In this document: piece by piece, positions 1 through 16,320 of the stretch
How positions within the stretch are numbered: the stretch's first letter is position 1
How the letters are laid out: each line of letters starts with the position of its first letter
DNA from: Theionarchaea archaeon
GTDB taxonomy: Archaea; Methanobacteriota_B; Thermococci; Methanofastidiosales; SZ-28-30
DNA: 20,000 bases
Assembly (NCBI GenBank): GCA_018992565.1
Contig: JACVGW010000004.1
Span: forward strand, 48,241-68,240
Direction of reading: 5' to 3'
The notes under the pieces: model-generated
What the model was told of the DNA's origin: nothing
What the model saw: only the letters and a program-made list of their open reading frames with translations
Database searches by the model: none
Position numbers and translations under genes: made by a program

Positions 1-577
1 CATCCTCCTGTATCTGTGCCAGACCTGTTTCAGATGGCGAGAAGGAGGTTCAACCTGCAGCCTCCATGACCTACCTGGATGCACAGTCTGTTATCAGCTT
101 CGGAGTCCTGAGGTACTGGACGAAAAGCACAGAGTCATCCAGAATGTGAGAGAAGCGCTTTCAGTTCTTGAATCATGTCCGGGTGTGGCGAATCTCATGC
201 CACAGGTCCATATGAACATCGCCATGAGTCTGGAACATGCGAAGAATCCCATGGAAGTGGCTGCTTTTCCTGGAAGGCTGGCACCAGTTCATGGAGTCGT
301 CACAGCAGTCTCAGATCCTGAATTTGGCGCATCCCACCACTTGGCTTCTCTTCTGCTGAAGACAGGAAAACGAGCAGTGATCAACATCAGGTATACTGAT
401 ATGCTCGCCTCTGCCCTCGAGAACCTGGGTATTACATTCTCGTATTCAACAGATGAATGTGGAGATGTCCTCATTGACACAGGAGGGTTTGGAATTGAAC
501 CCTGTGCGTATATATTCGGAAAAGACGCAGTGAATGCAGCTTTCACTCTTCGAAGGATTTCTCAAATTCTTGAATAG
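1..577 (+). CDS. ThiR-like regulator: Cys-rich linker plus C-terminal ThiN (thiamine-phosphate synthase-like) domain; 5' end lies outside the window
   Basis: Frame +2 is open from base 2 (ILLYLCQTCFRWREGGSTCSLHDLPGCTVC...) into the listed ORF 146..577. ThiN motifs are present: LMPQVHMNIA, VAAFPGR, PEFGASHH, INIRY, GGFGIEP. The upstream CxxC-x9-CxxH-x4-CxxC matches the C-terminus of the HTH protein at 4349..4741. The HTH itself is not visible and is inferred. Confidence 0.75.
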   Translation, partial: ILLYLCQTCFRWREGGSTCSLHDLPGCTVCYQLRSPEVLDEKHRVIQNVREALSVLESCPGVANLMPQVHMNIAMSLEHAKNPMEVAAFPGRLAPVHGVVTAVSDPEFGASHHLASLLLKTGKRAVINIRYTDMLASALENLGITFSYSTDECGDVLIDTGGFGIEPCAYIFGKDAVNAAFTLRRISQILE

Positions 578-1148
578 TCTCAACCAGCCGGGTAACCAAT
601 AGCCGTGTCTCCTCAGTGGGCATTTCATCGCATGGTTTGTACTTGAACGCTTTTCTCATGAGGAGTGGAATCTCAATCTGAACCCCTTTGTCTCTGGTCA
701 GGTTAACAACGTTCTTGGGATTCTTGGCAGAAAGATTTCTGCAGATTCCTCCGTCCTCGATAGCATCTACCACATCAAAGTCTTCTCTGAGGGACTGCAC
801 AATGCTGCGCCTCAGCGCCTGATTCAGGCCGCCCACGCAGATGACGTTGCGTTTTATGACATGACCATGTATGGAAATTGCTGTAGACACGTGCTCAAGG
901 AACTGTGCGAGCTTCTCTGAGTCCCTGGGGCTGATTTTGTTGGAGGAGATGTGAAACTTCCAGTCTCGCTTCTGGGTTCGGGGGGAGATGACATACAATG
1001 ATGAATTGCTGTTCTGAGCGATGCAGACAGCAATCTGCTCTGTACCTCGCTCTATATTTCCCCCGTGAACAGCCATAACTCCCACTTTTCCCTGGAGGAT
1101 ACTGTATTCAATGACGTCCTGGTGGGTCAGAAGCTTCGCCAATTTCAT
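543..1148 (-). CDS. Poly-gamma-glutamate hydrolase family protein (PghP/DUF867-like zinc peptidase)
   Basis: Family motifs AVHGGNIERGT, FHISS, ISIHG, VGG, NPKNVVN and GVQIEI. Putative Zn ligands in HGGNIE and SIHG, catalytic Glu in QIE. Confidence 0.8.
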   Translation of the reverse strand: MKLAKLLTHQDVIEYSILQGKVGVMAVHGGNIERGTEQIAVCIAQNSNSSLYVISPRTQKRDWKFHISSNKISPRDSEKLAQFLEHVSTAISIHGHVIKRNVICVGGLNQALRRSIVQSLREDFDVVDAIEDGGICRNLSAKNPKNVVNLTRDKGVQIEIPLLMRKAFKYKPCDEMPTEETRLLVTRLVETIQEFEKSFEE

Positions 1149-1247: not shown

Positions 1248-2234
1248 CTACCCACGACATCTCTCTCTCAGCGTAGAAATCTTCTGGATGCGGAAGATGA
1301 CGCTGTACAACTCCCTGTAAAATGAAGGTTGTTCCTGAAGCAGAAAAGAGCACAGATCATGATACGCAGCGTCAGCATTCCTGGTGAGGGCGGTGGCAAT
1401 AAAATCGGCTATTTCTTTCTTCAGGCTGACCTCTCTTAGGGAGGTGTGCTCACAGAGATCCTTGACTGCTGCTTCAAGAAGTGAGAGATGTTGGGCCAGA
1501 GAGAGGAGAACCAGCCCTCCCTTGTGAGAGACTATGAAGTTCATTGCCTGCTTTTTGAGAGAAAAAGACCCAAAATCATGAGATGGTTGATCCCAGAAGC
1601 TGCAGATGTGCCCTGCAAGGTTCAGATGGTCCAGGCATGATTTTTCTTCTGAGGTAACTGCGGGAGGATTGGAGTCCTGGCAGCTACTCGCTTCTGAAAT
1701 GCACTCCATCCTGGTGGACAGGCACGTGCAGATGACTGCGCCTTCTACAATCCGCGAAAGCAGCTCCCTCGTCCTGGTAATGTCCTCTTCACTTTCAGCA
1801 TGCCTGATGATAGTTTTTCCACTTACAGAAAGCAAGATCTCTTTCTGCTGAAAGTCAATGCGGGCGATACCCAGTTGCTTGGAGCACCGTACTGGCTCTG
1901 TCCAGGCTGGGAGGATGTCACATACTAGAGGGTCTAACCATCCATACTCCACCTCGCGGTGAGCCAGGTACAGTTCTGCCATCACCATACCTGACTCTGT
2001 AGAGCAGGGTTCAATGAGGGAAGTGGGTTTTACTTTTGTAGGTAAGGGCTGTATGGTCTGTATCAGCGTCTGCATTGACGCGATATCCAGTGAATAACCA
2101 CTCTTCAACCAATGACACTTTTCCAGAGGTTCCCGGTTGAAAATGACATTGCGTAAAAAGGTAGAACAGCTTTGATATCCGCAGATCCCACAATCCTTCT
2201 GGGGCATTGCCTGATATGCACTGCAGAGGTCCAT
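1248..2234 (-). CDS. Uncharacterised Fe-S protein with an N-terminal C-x2-C-x4-C-x16-C [4Fe-4S] domain and a second Cys cluster
   Basis: MPQKDCGICGYQSC-x16-C is the FeS module of RnfB/AcsC N-termini. A second Cys cluster reads CTCLSTRMECISEASSC. Start placed at ATG 2234 because SD-like GGGGTGA (2239-2245) precedes it and overlaps the sufS stop. Confidence 0.65.
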   Translation of the reverse strand: MDLCSAYQAMPQKDCGICGYQSCSTFLRNVIFNREPLEKCHWLKSGYSLDIASMQTLIQTIQPLPTKVKPTSLIEPCSTESGMVMAELYLAHREVEYGWLDPLVCDILPAWTEPVRCSKQLGIARIDFQQKEILLSVSGKTIIRHAESEEDITRTRELLSRIVEGAVICTCLSTRMECISEASSCQDSNPPAVTSEEKSCLDHLNLAGHICSFWDQPSHDFGSFSLKKQAMNFIVSHKGGLVLLSLAQHLSLLEAAVKDLCEHTSLREVSLKKEIADFIATALTRNADAAYHDLCSFLLQEQPSFYRELYSVIFRIQKISTLRERCRG

Positions 2235-2238
2235 GGCG

Positions 2239-3429
2239 TCACCCCGCAAGAGTCCTGGCAATCTCTTTCACAACATCAACCATCTGTTCCACTTCCTGTG
2301 CAGTGTTATAACAGTGATATGACGCCCTGACTGTTCCTGGAACATGCAGTTTCTTCATGATCGGGAGAGCACAGTGATGGCCTGAACGAACCATGATCCC
2401 CTGGGTGTCCAGTATGGATGCCACGTCATGAGGGTTCATGCCTTCCATGGTGAAAGAAACTACACCTGCGTGGGTTTCCATCTCCTGAGAGCCGTACCAG
2501 GTTACCTCAGGGATTTCAGACAGTCCATCCAGGGTCAGTCTGGTGAGCAGCGCTTCCTGCCTCTGTATCTCGGAGAACCCAATTTCTTGAATATACTCCA
2601 CAGCAGCTCCCAACCCAATGGCACCTGCAATATTGGGAGTCCCTGGTTCAAATCCATAAGGAGCATCTGCCAGGTCATAGCCTGTAAGGGAGACGTCCCG
2701 AACTGCCCCTCCTCCCAGAAAGCAGGGATCCATCTGATCCTGAACGCTCTTTCTCATGAACAGCACTCCAATACCTGTTGGACCCATGGGGCCTTTGTGA
2801 CCTGAAAAGGCAAGGAAGTCACATCCCAGCTTTTCTACATCCAAAGGGACATGTCCTGCAGCCTGAGCTGCATCCACACAGAATAATGCTCCTTCCTTTC
2901 TGGCCACTGCCCCGATTTTCTGCACGGGAAGAACAGTGCCCACTGCATTGGATATGATGCTGCAGGTGACCAGGTGAGCTCCCTCAATTTTCCCCAGCTC
3001 CTCCTCTTCCAGGATGCCAGGAGGTGAAGCCTCCATGATCTTCAGTGTAACGTCCCTGTCCTGTAATCTGAAAAAAGGCAGGAAGTTTGAATGGTGTTCC
3101 AGTTCTGTGGACACCACGATATCACCTGCATGAAAGGCCATCCCCAGGGCCACACGATTCAGTGCCTCCGTGGTGTTTGCAACAAAAATGACTTCTTCAG
3201 AAGATGCATTGATGAAATCAGCCACGTTCTCACGTGCCTCACTGAAGGCCCGGGAAGCTTCTTCAGAAAGAGAATGCACGCCTCTATGCACATTTCCCCG
3301 GTATTCCATGTAGTACCTTGTGACAGCCTCCACCACATGCCGGGGAGTCAAACTAGTAGCCGCGTTGTCAAAGTAAACGACCTTGCTGGTCAATGGAATA
3401 TCGGCTCGGACCTCATCCGGAACCCTCAT
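2239..3429 (-). CDS. sufS: Cysteine desulfurase, SufS/group II type (PLP-dependent, class V)
   Basis: YFDNAATS, GNVHRG, EHHSN, DAAQ, FSGHK (PLP lysine), GTPNIAG and RSGHHCA (group II catalytic Cys motif). ATGA overlap with the nadA stop. Confidence 0.92.
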   Translation of the reverse strand: MRVPDEVRADIPLTSKVVYFDNAATSLTPRHVVEAVTRYYMEYRGNVHRGVHSLSEEASRAFSEARENVADFINASSEEVIFVANTTEALNRVALGMAFHAGDIVVSTELEHHSNFLPFFRLQDRDVTLKIMEASPPGILEEEELGKIEGAHLVTCSIISNAVGTVLPVQKIGAVARKEGALFCVDAAQAAGHVPLDVEKLGCDFLAFSGHKGPMGPTGIGVLFMRKSVQDQMDPCFLGGGAVRDVSLTGYDLADAPYGFEPGTPNIAGAIGLGAAVEYIQEIGFSEIQRQEALLTRLTLDGLSEIPEVTWYGSQEMETHAGVVSFTMEGMNPHDVASILDTQGIMVRSGHHCALPIMKKLHVPGTVRASYHCYNTAQEVEQMVDVVKEIARTLAG

Positions 3430-4301
3430 TCCATCAACTCAAACATTGCGTCAATAGCCTTCTTTGCTTTTCGAGCCACCTCTGGATCAACCATAACCAT
3501 GTTTTCTACAGGTTTTTCTCTGAGAACGTATTCCACACTCTCACGTGTTATCATCTTCATATTGGGACAGACAGTGTAGGCAGAAAGGGCATGAACGATC
3601 TTTCCTGGGCACTCGTTTCTGATTTTGTGCAACATTCCATTTTCAGTTCCAATAATAACTTCTTTGGAATCAGTATTCTTCACGTAGTTGAGAATTCCCT
3701 CTGTTCCTCCCACGTAGTCTGCCAGATCGATGACCTCAGGTCTGCATTCAGGATGAACAGCCACCGTAGCCTGAGGATGGTTCTCCTTCATGAGGAGAAC
3801 GTCTTCAGCCATCAACTGATGGTGTGTGGGACAGTTACCTCCTTCAGGGACTATTATAACCTCCTTGTCCACAAACCGTTTGACATAGCTGCCCAGGTTC
3901 CTATCAGGGGTAAAGAGTATGGTATCTGTGTCCAATCGGGAAACGATGGAAACTGCGTTGGCTGAAGTGCAGATAGTATCTGAGACTGCTTTTACTGCGG
4001 CCGTGGTATTGACATACGCCACTACAAGAGCCCCGGGATACACCTTCTTGGCCTGGAGGATATCCTCTGATGTGACTTGATGGGCCATGGGACATTGACT
4101 CAGAGGCTCTGGCATAAAGACCCGTTTCTCAGGATTGAGGATGGCTGCAGTCTCTGCCATGAAATCGACTCCACAGAAGATAATGTCATTACATTCTGTT
4201 TCACGGGCGATCTGACATAACTTTAGAGAATCACCTGTAAGATCAGCTCTATCCTGCACGTCAGGTCGCTGATAATTGTGAGCCAGGATTATAGTATCCA
4301 T
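3426..4301 (-). CDS. nadA: Quinolinate synthase
   Basis: ILAHNYQ, GDSL, FCGVDFMAETA, YVNT, CTSAN, PDRNLG, HPEC, IGTE. The three cluster cysteines are in CPMA, CPTH and CPNMK. Confidence 0.96.
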   Translation of the reverse strand: MDTIILAHNYQRPDVQDRADLTGDSLKLCQIARETECNDIIFCGVDFMAETAAILNPEKRVFMPEPLSQCPMAHQVTSEDILQAKKVYPGALVVAYVNTTAAVKAVSDTICTSANAVSIVSRLDTDTILFTPDRNLGSYVKRFVDKEVIIVPEGGNCPTHHQLMAEDVLLMKENHPQATVAVHPECRPEVIDLADYVGGTEGILNYVKNTDSKEVIIGTENGMLHKIRNECPGKIVHALSAYTVCPNMKMITRESVEYVLREKPVENMVMVDPEVARKAKKAIDAMFELME

Positions 4302-4302
4302 G

Positions 4303-4319
4303 GTATAACACCGTTATAC
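4303..4319. promoter_or_regulatory. Perfect 7-3-7 inverted repeat, candidate operator GTATAAC-acc-GTTATAC
   Basis: Read directly. It lies between the TATA box and the nadA start codon, a repressor position. Confidence 0.7.
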
Positions 4320-4330
4320 TTATATATAAG
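4319..4330. promoter_or_regulatory. Palindromic (bidirectional) TATA box CTTATATATAAG shared by nadA and the HTH regulator
   Basis: Self-complementary 12-mer lying 17-18 nt from both divergent start codons (4301 and 4349). Confidence 0.65.
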
Positions 4331-4348
4331 CATTTCCGAAGGGGAGAT

Positions 4349-4741
4349 ATGAAGCCTCCCTGTGAACTGGCAGTGAAGGAGCTTCTTCCTTCCTTGCGAG
4401 CCGCTATCGTCAAAGAACTGTCTGAAAAATATCATATGAAACAGATAGATATTGCTGAAGCTGTTGGGATAACCCAGGCCTCAGTAAGCCAGTATCTGCA
4501 CGTGGAGAGGGCGAAAGAGGATAGAATTACTCTCATAGAGGGGTTTGATGAAGGAGTGAAGACAATTGCAGAAAAGATAGCTCTCAATCGCATGTCAAAA
4601 ACTGCTGTGCTTCACGCAGTGTGTGAGCTGTGTACAAGGATCCGAGAGTCAGAGGCATTCTGTCAGATCCACCAGGATATGGTAATGCTTGAAGGCTGCG
4701 ATATCTGTAAACCCGCCCAGTGCAAGGAAGAACGAGGTTGA
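4349..4741 (+). CDS. XRE-type HTH transcriptional regulator (COG2522-like) with Cys/His-rich C-terminus
   Basis: MKPPCE...LLPSLRA N-terminus, HTH KQIDIAEAVGITQASVSQYL, and C-terminal CELC-x9-CQIH-x8-CDIC. Confidence 0.85.
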   Translation: MKPPCELAVKELLPSLRAAIVKELSEKYHMKQIDIAEAVGITQASVSQYLHVERAKEDRITLIEGFDEGVKTIAEKIALNRMSKTAVLHAVCELCTRIRESEAFCQIHQDMVMLEGCDICKPAQCKEERG

Positions 4742-4764
4742 GTGGGATAGAAGCCAGATAAGCA

Positions 4765-5439
4765 TCAATGGAAGATACTGTAGATTTTTCCAGCTTTTTT
4801 CTTACCAATACCTTCTACCTGCTGCAGTCGCTTCTCAGTGGCATTTGCCACTGCAGCAATTGAACCAAAGTGATCCAGCAAATTCCTGGCCAGAACATCC
4901 CCCACAGAAGGGACCGATGCCAGCACGTACCGTCTGAGATCCATTTCTGGCAAGTGGGGAGACAGGTGTTTTCTGAACCAACGTGAACTGGGAAGCACGT
5001 CATTTTTCCCCTGGGTTTCCCGCTGGATCAGAATCCTGAGACACTGGTACAGCGCCTCGTCATCCTCACAGACAACGAGAGGAATATCATACACGAAGAG
5101 GATTTCCATGTATGCTCCCATGATCTGCGGCCAGGGTATGGATAGGTCCTGGTCAAAGGCACCATGGACTATGAGCAGTTTTCTCTTCAGTGGATACCCC
5201 AGTAAGGTATCAGCCTTCATGAGACGCAGCAGTTGATCCCACAGCCTGTTAGACCTCAGAGAAGAGAGAAAGTCTGATGTGGACTTACGCTCAATGAGTA
5301 CCCCCGTATCGCTGGAGACCAGGAAAAAATCACCCAAAGGCAGATGCGTCACATCAATGTGGACAGGTGGGGTCTGGCTACCTAAGGGCATGAGCAGCGA
5401 CTGAACAGCACTCTCACGGTGATCTATGAGTATATGCAT
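4765..5439 (-). CDS. Short XPF/ERCC4-family structure-specific endonuclease (nuclease + HhH2, no helicase)
   Basis: IDHRE, LPLGDF, IERKSTSDF and RLWDQ nuclease motifs; HhH pair VPSVG...VEGIGKKKA. ATG 5439 preferred over TTG 5460 because a TATA-like TTTTATAG (5461-5468, minus) sits about 21 nt upstream. Confidence 0.85.
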   Translation of the reverse strand: MHILIDHRESAVQSLLMPLGSQTPPVHIDVTHLPLGDFFLVSSDTGVLIERKSTSDFLSSLRSNRLWDQLLRLMKADTLLGYPLKRKLLIVHGAFDQDLSIPWPQIMGAYMEILFVYDIPLVVCEDDEALYQCLRILIQRETQGKNDVLPSSRWFRKHLSPHLPEMDLRRYVLASVPSVGDVLARNLLDHFGSIAAVANATEKRLQQVEGIGKKKAGKIYSIFH

Positions 5440-5540
5440 CAATGTCAGGTGGGGGTTCAACTATAAAATATTGTGTGCTCGCTGCAATATGTAGAAGGTT
5501 CTCGTGCAACACTGATGTTCCTACCTCTCCGTCATGAGGG

Positions 5541-6823: not shown

Positions 6824-6836
6824 TGACTATTTCAGA

Positions 6837-9827
<2,991 letters not shown>

Positions 9828-9841
9828 CTTACTGAAGCCAG

Positions 9842-9858
9842 GGTCAATTAGCGGGTAC
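9842..9858 (-). other. 5' strand of the pre-23S bulge-helix-bulge processing stem
   Basis: Complementary to 6807-6823 with BHB geometry. Confidence 0.8.
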
Positions 9859-9931
9859 TCACAACGTGTGCACGACGTCACCATCACATGTGTGATTCAG
9901 TCCTTCATATGGAGTATACTGGTACTCCATA

Positions 9932-10005
9932 TGGACTCGGCGGGATTTGAACCCGCGGCCTCTGGCTTGCAAAGCCAGCGCTCATACCAACTGAGCTACG
10001 AGCCC
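9932..10005 (-). tRNA. tRNA-Ala(UGC) in the 16S-23S spacer; CCA not encoded, no intron
   Basis: GGGCTCG/CGAGTCC acceptor stem with G3:U70 and discriminator A; anticodon arm CTGGC-TT-TGC-AA-GCCAG; T-loop GGTTCAAATCC. Confidence 0.97.
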
Positions 10006-10020
10006 TCACGATAAACGTGA

Positions 10021-10045
10021 AATGACTTTATGGTGTTTGAGTCCA
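10021..10045 (-). other. 3' strand of the pre-16S bulge-helix-bulge stem (pairs with 11546-11570)
   Basis: RNA UGGACUCAAA-CACC-AUA-AAGUCAUU pairs with AAUGACUU-GGUG-AAA-UUUGAGUCCA, a perfect canonical BHB. Confidence 0.9.
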
Positions 10046-10052
10046 TGGAATT

Positions 10053-11520
<1,468 letters not shown>

Positions 11521-11783: not shown

Positions 11784-11955
11784 TGCCAACGCGCTCTTCA
11801 GACACAGGTGCGTGGATTACTCCCCTGCAAGTATCTCATGAGGTGTGCCTCATGGTGTTGATGAGCCTTCAAGATGAACCCTGCACACCCCACACCCTCT
11901 CCTTCCCCCCTGGACCTACAACCACCTTTTAAAACATGGAGTGAAATACCTGTCC

Positions 11956-14900
11956 ATGGATAGTGACGCTTCCATCATCTCACTGTTTCACCCTGCAGTC
12001 CAGGCATGGATTTCCTCCACCTTTCATTCCCTGACAGAACCCCAGAGGCTGGCCTTCCCCATGGTCAAGGAAGACCAGAACATCCTCTTACTCTCTCCCA
12101 CGGGGAGTGGAAAAACACTGGCTGGATTCCTGGCGTCTATTGACCATCTGGTCTCCCGGGCAGAGCAGAATCAGCTGGATGATATGGTCTATATCATATA
12201 TGTCTCCCCGTTACGGGCTTTATCCAATGATATAAAGAAAAACTTGATGGTTCCTCTGGAAGGTATCAAGAAGGAAGCTCCCTTCGCAGACATCCGGGTA
12301 TTCGTGCGGACAGGGGATACCTCCTCCTACAGAAGATCACGGATGCTCAAGAACCCCCCTCATATTCTCATTACCACTCCTGAAACCCTGCAAATCATTT
12401 TAAATGCTCCCAAGTTCAGGGAAAAACTGACCAAGGTTAAGTACGTTATCATAGACGAAATCCACGACTTATGCAATACCAAGAGGGGAGTGTCCCTCTC
12501 CTTATCACTGGAACGCCTCCAGAATGTGGCTGGGCCCTTTGTGAGGATTGGGCTTTCAGCTACACAGGCCCCGGTGGAGGAAATTGGAAAATTTCTTGTA
12601 GGCACCAACCGCCACTGCCATATCCTCATCGCTGAAAAAGAGAAGAAGTATGACCTTTCCATAGTGAAACCAGCATCACTCTCGTCTCTATCTCTGGAGA
12701 AATCCATAGAAGAAAGCTATGATATCCTCAAGGAACTCATTGAATCGCATAATGTTACCATTGTCTTCACCAATACACGTTCCCGAACAGAAAGAATTGT
12801 CTACCAGTTGAAGAACCGCGAGTTGTACTCTGTGGCAGCTCACCATGGGAGTATGGGCAAGGAAACCCGCCATGAGATTGAACACCTGTTGAAGAAAGGT
12901 TCCATCCAGTCTGTCATCACTTCCACCTCACTGGAATTGGGCATAGATGTGGGGGATGTGGATCTAGTGGTCCAGCTGGGTTCTCCCAAGAACACTGCCA
13001 AGCTCATGCAGCGGGTAGGGAGAGCAGGACATGGGAGAGATGCAGTCTCAAAGGGAGTGCTCATAGCTCAGGACAGGGATGAACTGGTAGAACTGGAGAT
13101 TCTCAAAAGAAAAGCCCTGTCCTACAGGCTGGAACCCGTTGAGATCCCTCACAATTGTCTCGATGTCATGGCCCAGCATCTCATCGGCATGAGCCTGGAA
13201 CAGGTATGGAACGTCAATGAAGCATACAGGATGATCCGGGGTTCATATTGCTTCTGTGATCTGCCCTATGAGGATTTTCTCACTGTCCTGGAGTACCTGG
13301 GAGGATACTACGCAGATTTGGAAGAGAAGCATGTGTACAGGAAATTATGGTTTGATGGAGAGAATTTCGGGAGGATAAAGAGTGCTCTGTACCTTTACTT
13401 CCTGAACTGTGGGACCATACCCTCGCAGGCCACATTTACCGTGGCGCTTGACGGCATCCCTCTGGGCACCCTGTCAGAGTCCTTTGTATCTCATTTAAAA
13501 GCGAAGGATGTTTTTGTCCTTGGAGGACGCTCTCTGGAATTCGTGAGAACTGAAGGAATGTACGTTGTGGTCAAAGATGCCCTGGGTGGGAAACCCACTG
13601 TCCCCTCCTGGAGGGGAGAGGCTCTGTCACGCTCATACGAATTCGGAGTTGACCTTTCAGACTTTAGAAAAGAGGTGGAACTCCACGGAGGAGCTGATCC
13701 TGATATTCAGCAGTACATAGAAGAACAGAAAAAAGCCACCGGAATTGTGCCCACAGCAGACATCCTCTTTGTGGAAAGATACATAGACGGAGACCACACC
13801 TACCACCTGATCTTTCACAGCCCCTTTGGCAGACGAGTTAATGAAGCCCTGGCAAGAGGATATGGACAGAAATTGGCCTGCCCGGACTTCACCGTGACAG
13901 ACAATGGGTTCATGCTCAATTCAGCAAGAGCCCTCAATTTCACCACAGGCATCCTGTCCAGTGAGGAGTTCCTTGAAGTCATACGAGCCTCAGTATGGGG
14001 AACGGAGCTCTTCTGCCAGCGGTTCAGACACTGTGCAGAACGAGGGTTCCTCCTTTTGAAGCGATACAAAGGGAAGTCTGTCACTCCCCGCACCCAGTAC
14101 TTCAGGGCCCGTTCATTGCTCAAAGAGCTGCCTTTTGACTTTCCCCTGGTGAAGGAGACCTTTAACGAAGTACTGTATTCTGCTCTGGATTGTAACCATG
14201 CACTGGAGATTCTCAAGAAAATTGAGAATGAAGACATCAAGGTAGTCATATCCGACTATACTACTATTCCCTCCCCCTTTGCTCTCTCCATTGTCATGGC
14301 AGGAGCCCAGGATGTCATCACCCTGAAAGACCGCAGTGAATTCCTGCAGCATATGCAGAAGGCAGTCACAGAGAGGATTATTGAGAAGACTCCTGCTTTT
14401 TCTCCTGCAGCAGTGGAAGAGTATTTTGCAGGACGCGCAAGAGAACCATATTCCACAGGGGAGTCCTCATCAGATGAAGCGCTGAAAGATGCTGTCCTGA
14501 AGATACTGTTCACAGGGATACGAACTGCAGCCCAGTTGCAGTCCGAGCTGGGCTGTGACTTAAAGAGAACTGAGAGAATTCTTGATACTCTCATCGAAGA
14601 AAATACAGTCTCCTGCGGGTATTTCACCGCTCCTGTCCTGCAGTACATGCTGATTAAGGACAGAAGATACCTTGAATATGGAGAAGGAATAGAAATAACT
14701 ACTGTTAATCAATTTTTGACCCGGAAACACTTCACTTATCCTTCTGTAGAAGCAGTATTCCACGCTTATGGGTACATGAGGTCCCGGAGGGCAATCTATG
14801 ATCGGGTAGGATTCTTTCATGAGCCTCTCATGAGGATCAAGGTCAGGGGGAGGCTGGTATATATTCTCCCAGAATCCAAATCCCTTTTTGTCTCAGCCTA

Positions 14901-16320
14901 CAGACAGGAACTACCTTCGGAAGAAGTCCACATACTGAAGTTCATCCGTGAAAATCCAGGATTGAAGAAAAAAGACATTGTCAAGGTGTGTGGATCGTAT
15001 TTCAATGGGCTAGAGGAAGCTTTATACCTCTACCGCGATGAACACAACAGGTTCTATCCACTGGAGGCAGAAATCACCTCTCCTGAAGAAGCAAGGAGAG
15101 AAATCGTCAGAAAGTATGTGACCTCCTGTGGTCCTGTATCCAAAGAAGAAGTCATGTACCATACAGGAACCTCGAATGGTATTGATCCACTCCTGGAAGA
15201 GTTCAGAAAGGTCACCATCTTCTCCCGCATAGTCCAGGAGATGTACTGTACGGAAGAAGATTTCCAGGCAATGAAAGCGCAGTCTGCTGCAGGAATCAGA
15301 ATCATCGATCATACTGATCCTCTCTATGACAAGATTCGACATGAATGCTGTTCAGTTCTGGGGGAGTCGGTTTCACCCATACTGGCTGATGGGCGCCTGG
15401 CAGGAGGTATTCTCTTCACGGCGGGTGACACCTTCTGTATTGAAGAATTCATCATGCGAGAACCAGTGTCTGCACAGGATTTACTGGAAGAGATTCTCAG
15501 GGTCTACAGGTTTTACAGATGGCAGGGAGCCAGGTCTGTGACAGTAAAGCCAGAGCTCCTGAAAACCGTGATTGAAACCACAGGAGTCTCCGTTGTAGAT
15601 GAAGTCCTGGTGGAAGCTCCACCTCTCACTGTCGAATCACCAGATATCCACAGGTCCCAGCTGAAGCTGCAGTCGCTGCTTGACATGAACCCTGCTGCAA
15701 CGGTATTGCAGCTACCTTTTCTTGACCTCAAATCTGCCCAGAAGAGAACCACAGAAGACATACAGGAACTGCTCCGGACTGGAAAGGCAGTGACTGTCTC
15801 CTACAATGGTAACCAGTACATCTGTCTTCCTGAAGATGTCTCCCTGTATACAAAGCCCGACATACCAGAACTGGTGAACCGAATACTGGATTCTTTTGGA
15901 CTTGTATCTCCCTTCCAAGTGCGAGAGCTCGTAGACGCAGAACTGTACGTCATTGAAGCCATCCTTGAGAAAACAGGGAGAAAGGTGTTCTACCAGAATG
16001 AGGTGTACTACTCTCTTCTCGTTCCCCTTGAAAAAGAATCTCCTGAAGAGGATTCCATACTGTTCCTCCCTGATACAGATCCCTATAGTATCCTCCACCG
16101 CCAGGAATGGCCCTTGAAGGGAACAATTATTCTGGTAAACGGGATTCCTGCAGGGTACTACACCACAGAAGACAGCCAAGCTGATCTCTACCTGTTTAAA
16201 GAATATAAGGACTACTGGGGGACGATCCTGGTAAAACTACCTTCAGAACACATCTCAATCCGCACCATCAATGGGAGACCAAGTAAGGACACACGGTTTG
16301 CTAGAGCGTTCTCCCGATGA
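11956..16320 (+). CDS. lhr: Long Lhr-family SF2 ATP-dependent helicase with about 600-aa C-terminal extension
   Basis: SPTGSGKT, YVSPLRAL, RTGDT, LITTPE, DEIH, IGLSAT, HHGS, TSLELGID, QRVGRAGH, DVMAQHL, GTIP, PSWRGE. ATG 11956 preferred over GTG 11941 because TTTTAAAA (11927-11934) lies 21 nt upstream. Confidence 0.9.
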   Translation: MDSDASIISLFHPAVQAWISSTFHSLTEPQRLAFPMVKEDQNILLLSPTGSGKTLAGFLASIDHLVSRAEQNQLDDMVYIIYVSPLRALSNDIKKNLMVPLEGIKKEAPFADIRVFVRTGDTSSYRRSRMLKNPPHILITTPETLQIILNAPKFREKLTKVKYVIIDEIHDLCNTKRGVSLSLSLERLQNVAGPFVRIGLSATQAPVEEIGKFLVGTNRHCHILIAEKEKKYDLSIVKPASLSSLSLEKSIEESYDILKELIESHNVTIVFTNTRSRTERIVYQLKNRELYSVAAHHGSMGKETRHEIEHLLKKGSIQSVITSTSLELGIDVGDVDLVVQLGSPKNTAKLMQRVGRAGHGRDAVSKGVLIAQDRDELVELEILKRKALSYRLEPVEIPHNCLDVMAQHLIGMSLEQVWNVNEAYRMIRGSYCFCDLPYEDFLTVLEYLGGYYADLEEKHVYRKLWFDGENFGRIKSALYLYFLNCGTIPSQATFTVALDGIPLGTLSESFVSHLKAKDVFVLGGRSLEFVRTEGMYVVVKDALGGKPTVPSWRGEALSRSYEFGVDLSDFRKEVELHGGADPDIQQYIEEQKKATGIVPTADILFVERYIDGDHTYHLIFHSPFGRRVNEALARGYGQKLACPDFTVTDNGFMLNSARALNFTTGILSSEEFLEVIRASVWGTELFCQRFRHCAERGFLLLKRYKGKSVTPRTQYFRARSLLKELPFDFPLVKETFNEVLYSALDCNHALEILKKIENEDIKVVISDYTTIPSPFALSIVMAGAQDVITLKDRSEFLQHMQKAVTERIIEKTPAFSPAAVEEYFAGRAREPYSTGESSSDEALKDAVLKILFTGIRTAAQLQSELGCDLKRTERILDTLIEENTVSCGYFTAPVLQYMLIKDRRYLEYGEGIEITTVNQFLTRKHFTYPSVEAVFHAYGYMRSRRAIYDRVGFFHEPLMRIKVRGRLVYILPESKSLFVSAYRQELPSEEVHILKFIRENPGLKKKDIVKVCGSYFNGLEEALYLYRDEHNRFYPLEAEITSPEEARREIVRKYVTSCGPVSKEEVMYHTGTSNGIDPLLEEFRKVTIFSRIVQEMYCTEEDFQAMKAQSAAGIRIIDHTDPLYDKIRHECCSVLGESVSPILADGRLAGGILFTAGDTFCIEEFIMREPVSAQDLLEEILRVYRFYRWQGARSVTVKPELLKTVIETTGVSVVDEVLVEAPPLTVESPDIHRSQLKLQSLLDMNPAATVLQLPFLDLKSAQKRTTEDIQELLRTGKAVTVSYNGNQYICLPEDVSLYTKPDIPELVNRILDSFGLVSPFQVRELVDAELYVIEAILEKTGRKVFYQNEVYYSLLVPLEKESPEEDSILFLPDTDPYSILHRQEWPLKGTIILVNGIPAGYYTTEDSQADLYLFKEYKDYWGTILVKLPSEHISIRTINGRPSKDTRFARAFSR

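Follow-up and report, generated by a model that had tools for sequence, protein, structure and literature searches.

A Cys-rich archaeal regulator linked by computation to a palindromic operator and to genes for iron-sulfur cluster assembly and cysteine supply

Results

A divergent regulator and nadA share a spacer that holds a perfect palindrome. We analyzed a 20,000-nucleotide (nt) stretch of Theionarchaea archaeon contig JACVGW010000004.1 (the window), in which the gene for a 130-amino-acid (aa) regulator (4349..4741, plus strand), delimited from its open reading frame (ORF), alignments, an AlphaFold2 (AF2) model and profile searches, lies divergent from nadA, the gene for quinolinate synthase. 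Computation links this protein, a palindrome in the spacer and a set of genes that serve sulfur supply and the building of iron-sulfur (Fe-S) clusters. Judged from sequence, the best reading is that the regulator does the job of IscR, SufR or CymR yet is unrelated to their families.

The spacer comprises 47 bp (4302-4348) between the nadA start codon (4301, minus strand) and the regulator ATG (4349, plus strand). The predicted operator, GTATAAC-ACC-GTTATAC (4303..4319, strandless; called from sequence and conservation), is a perfect GTATAAC-N3-GTTATAC palindrome that spans -2 to -18 as counted from the nadA start codon. It adjoins a shared self-complementary TATA box read from the sequence (TTATATATAA, 4320..4329, strandless), which sits inside a 12-nt self-complementary stretch (4319-4330), and it lies on the B recognition element (BRE) side of the regulator promoter. 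An earlier note made from the letters of the window had described the spacer, the palindrome and the abutting self-complementary stretch, and all three are as it said. The TATA centre (~4325) is 24 nt from either start codon, and archaeal TATA boxes are usually at about -26/-27, so both divergent transcripts, that of nadA and that of the regulator, are probably leaderless or near-leaderless.

The palindrome is not a chance occurrence. The exact 17-mer is found once in the window, where matches at up to 3 mismatches number 2 against 0.30 expected. A scan of the organism's own genome (2.8 Mb), one of the checks suggested in the earlier note, gave four sites at 0-1 mismatch, 1 exact and 3 with one mismatch, while 60 permuted palindromes of the same composition averaged 0.017 exact and 0.28 one-mismatch copies and none of the 60 reached 4 sites. 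Of the four, three lie between genes beside a TATA box, one in the nadA/regulator spacer, one in the iscU-iscS promoter (C8:13822) and one in the promoter of a paralogue of the regulator fused to a ThiN domain.

The operator is conserved within the order and tracks the stand-alone protein. The order is represented by 34 genomes in four families (f1-f4), of which f1 and f2 make up the 10 genomes nearest the window. A regulator homologue was present in 16 of 31 related genomes, and a profile search of all 34 found one in 17. The palindrome is kept in seven of eight best-hit stand-alone loci with upstream DNA (L013, L015, L016, L017, L018, L020 and L028) and was not found in the spacer of the eighth, L019; L014 was left out of this count because of a contig end. 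On the far side of the spacer is nadA in G001, G004, G010, G013, G016 and G019, and sufS, without nadA, in G003. The f2 arrangement is mirrored, with the operator between the shared TATA box and the regulator start codon.

Exact TATAAC-N3-GTTATA matches were then counted over the order, with the reversed pattern as control. The 10 genomes of f1 and f2, nine of which have the stand-alone protein, hold 30 exact sites (control 2). Family f3 (17 genomes, with the stand-alone protein in 1 and weakly in 1 more) holds 7 (control 6), and f4 (7 genomes, with the ThiN-fused form only) holds 0 (control 1). Four f3 genomes without the regulator were inspected at their iscS-iscU loci, and none showed the core or a site with 2 or fewer mismatches. 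Three genomes (G004, G010 and G019) have the stand-alone family member only and still keep the sites; together with the counts by family, this indicates that the operator follows the stand-alone protein and not the fused paralogue. The role of the palindrome as operator of the divergent regulator, as first proposed from the letters of the window, is therefore supported both by the orthologous spacers and by co-occurrence with the stand-alone protein. In G008, in which no regulator was found, the palindrome and a TATA box stand at L145:1501-1515 before a PadR-like regulator and a cupin gene; G014, unlike G008, does have a regulator homologue.

Together the sites outline a regulon of Fe-S and sulfur genes. 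In 10 of 10 f1 and f2 genomes an exact site lies beside the TATA box of the iscU(-iscS) promoter, with the G002 iscU assigned by eye from its N-terminus. Sites were also present in the cysK promoters of G004, G010 and G013, in the Nfu and TusA promoters of G003 and in the aconitase promoter of G004, which has a further site before a 52-aa TRASH/YHS ORF and an HMA P-type ATPase gene (L050:2390-2583). One G010 site, at an ABC-2 permease junction, may be chance. The set of iscU-iscS, sufS, nfu, tusA, cysK, aconitase and metal ATPase genes is thus coherent, and wider than the earlier note had guessed.

Across archaea the family is associated with iscSU and cysK. A scan of a genome collection gave a wider set of 80 loci, in 79 of which the upstream core was scored. 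These come from Thermoplasmata, Thermoplasmatota, Methanomassiliicoccales, Methanocella, Methanobacteriaceae, Hadarchaeota, Bathyarchaeia, Heimdallarchaeota, Aenigmatarchaeota and Nanoarchaeota. In 33 of the 79, a copy of the core TAAC-N3-GTTA is found no more than 120 nt upstream of the regulator gene, compared with 0-2 of 79 for 11 control palindromes, and the density of the core is 3.58 per kb upstream of the regulator versus 0.035 per kb elsewhere. Of the 80 loci, 36 have iscU, 20 have iscS and 42 have a cysK-like gene no further than 4 kb from the regulator, and 55 have at least one of iscU, iscS, sufS, cysK and nadA at that distance. Taken singly, nadA is that close in 1 of 80. The nadA link is particular to this order, and the family-wide link is to iscSU and cysK.

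Further core sites precede cysK in Thermoplasmata and in one Heimdallarchaeota locus, and in Thermoplasmata loci the regulator gene is directly upstream of cysK. Sites in Methanobacteriaceae precede glutamate-cysteine-ligase-like and serine acetyltransferase (cysE-like) genes, both judged by eye from their N-termini; in Aenigmatarchaeota one precedes iscS, and in a Hadarchaeota locus one precedes an HMA ATPase gene (L120:4897-4925). The G004 and Hadarchaeota sites connect metal export with the regulon, in two lineages that are distant from each other. Four Methanocella loci (L109, L111, L115 and L119) have a second palindrome of the TATAAC-N4-GTTATA type ~15-45 nt upstream of the regulator, with the same half-sites, downstream of a TTAAC-N3-GTTAA site.

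An exhaustive profile search returned 2003 cluster representatives when matches with E up to 0.001 were accepted, and 942 with a limit of 1e-10. Most are of 100-140 aa, with a minority of ~300 aa. Carriers include gut and rice-field methanogens (Methanosphaera, Methanobrevibacter, Methanocella and Methanomassiliicoccales) as well as uncultured lineages. The nearest named relative is a Theionarchaea metagenome-assembled genome, at 85% protein identity.

The regulator combines a helix-turn-helix (HTH) with two sets of putative ligands. An N-terminal C5-E6 pair is followed in the protein by an HTH (about residues 32-51), and the C-terminal part is a helical module with the Cys/His pattern C92-x2-C95-x9-C105-x2-H108-x8-C117-x2-C120. 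This is the CxxC-x9-CxxH-x8-CxxC motif of the earlier note, in which the invariant C5 had gone unlisted. The HTH named there is visible as a region of the AF2 model, and its Pfam scores all fall under the cut-offs (HTH_3 18.1 bits against 23, HTH_5 19 against 22). Precomputed labels for XRE/HTH_3 (PF01381) sit on a few homologues and on 23-68% of members in atlas clusters, and the ArsR-type model NF033788 gave 20 bits against a cut-off of 55. Searches against Pfam and NCBIfam at E up to 0.01 detected no Rrf2 domain (PF02082), the Pfam search gave no match to ThiN (PF10120), and neither database gave a match to the NAD-regulator domains looked for (3H, NMN adenylyltransferase-like and Nudix). 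There is no room for a further effector domain in 130 aa.

The AF2 model is all-helical (predicted local distance difference test 82, predicted template modeling score 0.77), with two late helices bearing C92/C95 and C105/H108. A Foldseek search of the model against the PDB returned nothing at E up to 0.001, and in a wide VIA-align comparison the highest Z, 5.8, was to helical proteins that are unrelated. Only the HTH aligns with DeoR/SorC regulators (Z 5.2 and 4.5 over 46-51 residues), and a sequence-profile search of the PDB gave generic HTH matches only, at E 0.0026 or worse. A homodimer prediction scored 0.10 against a mark of 0.42, which weighs neither way.

Counted among 151 diverse family representatives, the ligands fall into two tiers. 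The first is kept almost throughout (C5 in 143, E6 in 147, C92 in 141 and C95 in 145), and the second less often (C105 in 113, H108 in 98, C117 in 119 and C120 in 115). We propose that C5/E6/C92/C95 is a near-universal site that would connect the N-terminus, immediately ahead of the HTH, with a late helix. The remaining C105/H108/C117/C120 looks like an accessory Cys3His site of the zinc type.

A ThiN-fused paralogue lies on the same contig. The window opens with the 3' part of a gene for a ThiR-like, ThiN-fused paralogue of 269 aa (1..577, plus strand; PF10120, 123.7 bits), whose start codon is outside the window; gene and palindrome together occupy G000:C127:47992-48817. The palindrome (G000:C127:47992-48008), 233-249 nt before the window, has one mismatch, ends at the start codon of the paralogue and is also kept in G001 and G002. 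The two proteins share 32% identity (E 3.7e-8), and residues common to both are P4, C5, Q43, A44, S47, Y49, C92, C95, C105, H108, C117 and C120. Upstream of the f4 ThiN-fused genes there was no TAAC-N3-GTTA-like motif and no clear shared palindrome. A poly-gamma-glutamate-hydrolase-like gene (543-1148, minus strand) is convergent to the ThiN-fused gene, and the same pairing occurs in G001 and G002 (L030 and L031).

ThiR, an HTH domain fused to ThiN, was reportedly described by Rodionov et al. and by Hwang et al. in J Bacteriol in 2017, and we take ThiN-fused proteins with this DNA-binding domain to be ThiR-type archaeal thiamine regulators. The regulator resembles them in its homologous N-terminal HTH domain of the Cys-rich type, and the promoter of the paralogue itself carries a similar palindrome. 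Unlike ThiR, it has no ThiN effector domain, and its sites precede nadA, sufS, iscUS, cysK, nfu, tusA and acn, not thiamine genes; unlike the carriers of the stand-alone protein, the seven fused-only genomes of f4 have no exact copy of the motif.

The facing operon encodes an Fe-S enzyme and a desulfurase. First in the operon is nadA (3426..4301, minus strand; PF02445 358.9 bits, NF006878 366.3 bits), whose product is a [4Fe-4S] enzyme. Its 3' end overlaps by 4 nt the gene for a SufS-like class-V cysteine desulfurase (2239..3429, minus strand; PF00266 429 bits), which matches TIGR01979 at 418 bits, under the 475-bit cut-off. The third gene (1248..2234, minus strand) was identified by a Pfam domain match to PF04060 (FeS); its likely start is the ATG at 2234, and the ORF finder had placed it at a TTG at 2261. 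In this protein of 328-337 aa the domain is N-terminal and the rest is without an assigned family. Homologues adjoin the regulator in 8 of the 80 wider loci and may represent an undescribed accessory of archaeal Fe-S assembly. Those eight loci pair them with the regulator, iscU and sufS in Thermoplasmata, Methanomassiliicoccales, Hadarchaeota and Nanoarchaeota.

Contigs from a metatranscriptome library, which cannot reveal transcript ends, cover nadA at 3739-4178, and none was found over 4224-5500, the region of the regulator gene. One spans the nadA/sufS junction (3236-3465), a weak hint of co-transcription, with DNA carry-over possible.

The wider context of the window is archaeal. A complete archaeal rRNA operon (6836-11520, minus strand; 16S 10052-11520, tRNA 9932-10005, 23S 6836-9828) explains an ORF-poor stretch. 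A 1459-aa Lhr-type helicase follows (11941-16320, plus strand) with DEAD, Helicase_C, WH_Lhr and DEAD_assoc domains and a C-terminal AlkZ-like glycosylase region, and Pfam and NCBIfam matches also mark a gene for a Hef-like nuclease.

Discussion

The favored reading is an autoregulated, Fe-S-responsive repressor of Fe-S assembly and of cysteine and sulfur supply, and as a full mechanism we give it an even chance of being correct. In the mechanism we infer, the 130-aa protein would recognize TATAAC-N3-GTTATA (core TAAC-N3-GTTA), presumably as a dimer, and once bound would block recruitment of RNA polymerase at the nadA-sufS-FeS promoter. The same operator would overlap the BRE position of the regulator's own promoter, leading to autoregulation, and further operators between TATA box and start codon would act at iscU-iscS and at the ThiN-fused paralogue. 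Repression of the operon and of the regulator itself, as predicted in the earlier note, fits these positions between or against TATA box and start codons. The predicted regulon would consist of genes that assemble Fe-S clusters, that supply sulfur and cysteine, or that encode labile [4Fe-4S] enzymes. The Cys/His module would report Fe-S status, most likely through a cluster at C5/E6/C92/C95, such that the holo protein would bind DNA and repress, and loss of the cluster (through shortage of Fe or S, oxidants or thiophilic metals) would release it from DNA. NadA and aconitase have solvent-exposed clusters in which one Fe has no cysteine ligand, which makes their place in a regulon induced at cluster scarcity or damage coherent.

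Several observations weigh against this reading, some of them against the operator and others against the sensor. The fourth site in the organism's own genome is inside an argininosuccinate-lyase-like ORF, and the site C32:1284 falls within an ORF. The 13-nt core ATAAC-N3-GTTAT has 4 copies in this genome, where base composition predicts ~4 by our estimate, so the case rests on position and conservation and not on raw counts. Five f3 genomes (G008, G014, G029, G031 and G033) have an identical 15-mer, which in G008 may be a look-alike site used by a different factor. In 46 of the 79 wider loci the region upstream of the regulator gave no core, and the f2 operator is upstream of the nadA BRE, so that nadA there could be activated or unaffected. 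The f2 orthologues (107-111 aa; L016, L018 and L020) lack C117 and C120 and have Tyr for H108, and two of the three also lack C105. These short proteins retain only the first tier, with C5 and the CxxC, yet the operator is still there, as are the synteny with nadA and the sites at iscUS and cysK, which argues that the four second-tier residues are dispensable for the regulon. All seven Cys/His are invariant in nine ThiN-fused paralogues (13 of 13 alignment rows), which have a separate effector domain, and the sites may therefore be structural; the CxxC...CxxH...CxxC pattern is also zinc-finger-like. Since the fused paralogues keep all seven and some orthologues only three, the sensing of Fe-S or metal that the earlier note ascribed to the Cys/His motif stays at the level of prediction.

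These points lead to an alternative with the same protein, operator and regulon in which both Cys/His sites are structural zinc only and the signal enters through a partner protein, a small thiol metabolite or the autoregulated level of the protein. We consider it unlikely, though deserving of serious weight. Paralogues with the same seven ligands sense through ThiN, the zinc-finger-like pattern is accompanied by a weak, non-significant match to a plant zinc-finger chain (E 0.24), and the position of the regulator directly upstream of cysK in Thermoplasmata loci would suit input from a partner protein. Against this, the regulon centers on Fe-S assembly and labile Fe-S enzymes, for which a cluster sensor is the best fit, and no second domain or conserved partner was identified. 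The pairing of C5-E6 with a late-helix CxxC would also resemble regulatory cluster sites more than a classic zinc knuckle.

A further possibility, which we regard as improbable, is that the Cys-rich module senses a thiophilic metal (Cu, Zn or Cd), thiol oxidation or persulfide, and that the regulon is a response to metal or thiol stress, raising cysteine, gamma-Glu-Cys, Fe-S repair and metal export. The sites before the TRASH/YHS ORF and HMA P-type ATPase gene in G004 and before the HMA ATPase gene in Hadarchaeota fit such a response, as do those before cysK, cysE-like and glutamate-cysteine-ligase-like genes. Metal-export targets are confined to these two lineages, however, versus iscU-iscS in every f1 and f2 genome, and an Fe-S sensor would answer the same stresses, so that the two readings overlap.

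It is very improbable that the palindrome is instead the site of the ThiN-fused, ThiR-like paralogue 4.6 kb away, with thiamine phosphates as the signal for the locus. Both proteins have the recognition-helix residues Q43, A44, S47 and Y49, and the one-mismatch palindrome at the start codon of the paralogue is kept in two other genomes. Sites persist, however, in the three genomes with the stand-alone protein only and are absent from the seven fused-only f4 genomes; ThiC and a true Thi4 were not found in the organism's own genome (88% complete), and the targets are not thiamine genes.

We rejected an NAD-specific regulator of nadA that senses a pyridine nucleotide or niacin, like bacterial NiaR, NadR or NrtR, as scarcely credible. 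The divergent regulator-nadA synteny in f1 and f2 (G000, G001, G004, G010, G013, G016 and G019) speaks for it, but no other NAD gene was found among the sites, the protein matches no NAD-regulator family, the G003 spacer faces sufS without nadA, and in the wider loci nadA is near the regulator once, versus 36 times for iscU and 42 for cysK. Least credible of all, and likewise rejected, is a chance or basal promoter element (an extended bidirectional TATA/BRE), as the A/T-rich, TATA-like half-sites and the core copy number expected from composition alone might suggest, since every promoter examined has a separate canonical TATA box next to the palindrome, conservation of the AAC-N3-GTT core extends across phyla and the iscS-iscU promoters of four of four regulator-less relatives have no site.

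The proposed Fe-S-responsive repressor can be compared with several known systems. It resembles IscR, a bacterial [2Fe-2S] protein of the Rrf2 family, as a predicted autoregulated repressor of iscSU-type genes, as a small all-helical HTH protein with Cys/His ligands near the C-terminus, and in a predicted regulon of scaffold, desulfurase, carrier and Fe-S enzymes. Unlike IscR, it has no Rrf2 domain, no structural match, a different operator and an archaeal host, and its cofactor is a prediction. Membership of the Rrf2 group (IscR, CymR and NsrR) would call for a cluster that is held by three Cys and a fourth ligand and controls DNA binding; in the regulator the candidate ligands of the predicted cofactor are C5, E6, C92 and C95, kept in 141-147 of 151 representatives. 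SufR, a [4Fe-4S] repressor of suf, likewise has an HTH and a C-terminal Cys cluster and acts on a divergent Fe-S assembly operon and on itself. The likeness of fold is weak and confined to DeoR/SorC-type HTHs (the Z scores of 5.2 and 4.5 above), the sequences are unrelated, the Cys residues are spaced differently, and the predicted targets are MIS/ISC-type iscSU and a SufS-like gene, not sufBCD.

CymR, the Rrf2-family repressor of cysteine metabolism in Bacillus and Staphylococcus, is similar in that the regulator, too, is predicted to act on cysK and, in some lineages, on cysE-like genes. The two families are unrelated, and here the regulon extends to Fe-S assembly. In Bacillus, CysK acts as a signaling partner of CymR; we found no evidence here of a CysK partner. 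The Bacillus subtilis nifS-niaR/nadBCA divergon couples a dedicated cysteine desulfurase to NAD synthesis because NadA needs a [4Fe-4S] cluster. The locus in the window likewise ties a desulfurase to nadA and has a divergent regulator gene. NiaR, however, senses niacin and is unrelated to the regulator, and in the window the desulfurase gene is within the nadA operon and the regulator is also linked to iscSU.

The literature searched, which covered few subscription journals and no supplements, contained no description of an archaeal regulator of this kind, nor did the accessible part of a Methanosarcina Fe-S paper. The earlier note knew of no characterized regulator of this family that controls nadA, and none was found in that literature, but the DNA-binding domain proved to be shared with ThiR-type proteins. 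The available portion of a 2026 review names only bacterial Fe-S sensors, namely IscR, SufR (cyanobacteria and actinobacteria), NsrR, RirA and FNR, and describes the archaeal MIS (IscS-IscU) system as the one studied least (PMC13066941).

We accordingly rate the regulator, from its sequence relationships, as a putative new family doing the job of Fe-S and cysteine homeostasis in Archaea, with a type of DNA-binding domain already known from ThiR. More tentatively, and with more doubt than confidence, we suggest that it may be an archaeal master regulator of Fe-S homeostasis. It would then belong to an ancient pan-archaeal family (~2000 clusters at 50% identity), would use a new Fe-S site made of C5-E6 and a late-helix CxxC, and would control the MIS IscS-IscU system, cysteine synthesis and labile [4Fe-4S] enzymes, with ThiR derived from it by fusion to ThiN. 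The finding supplies a candidate regulator, a defined operator and a testable regulon for the control of archaeal Fe-S biogenesis, and it would also account for where the DNA-binding domain of ThiR came from. Should the cofactor be confirmed, the protein would represent a new fold among Fe-S-sensing transcription factors.

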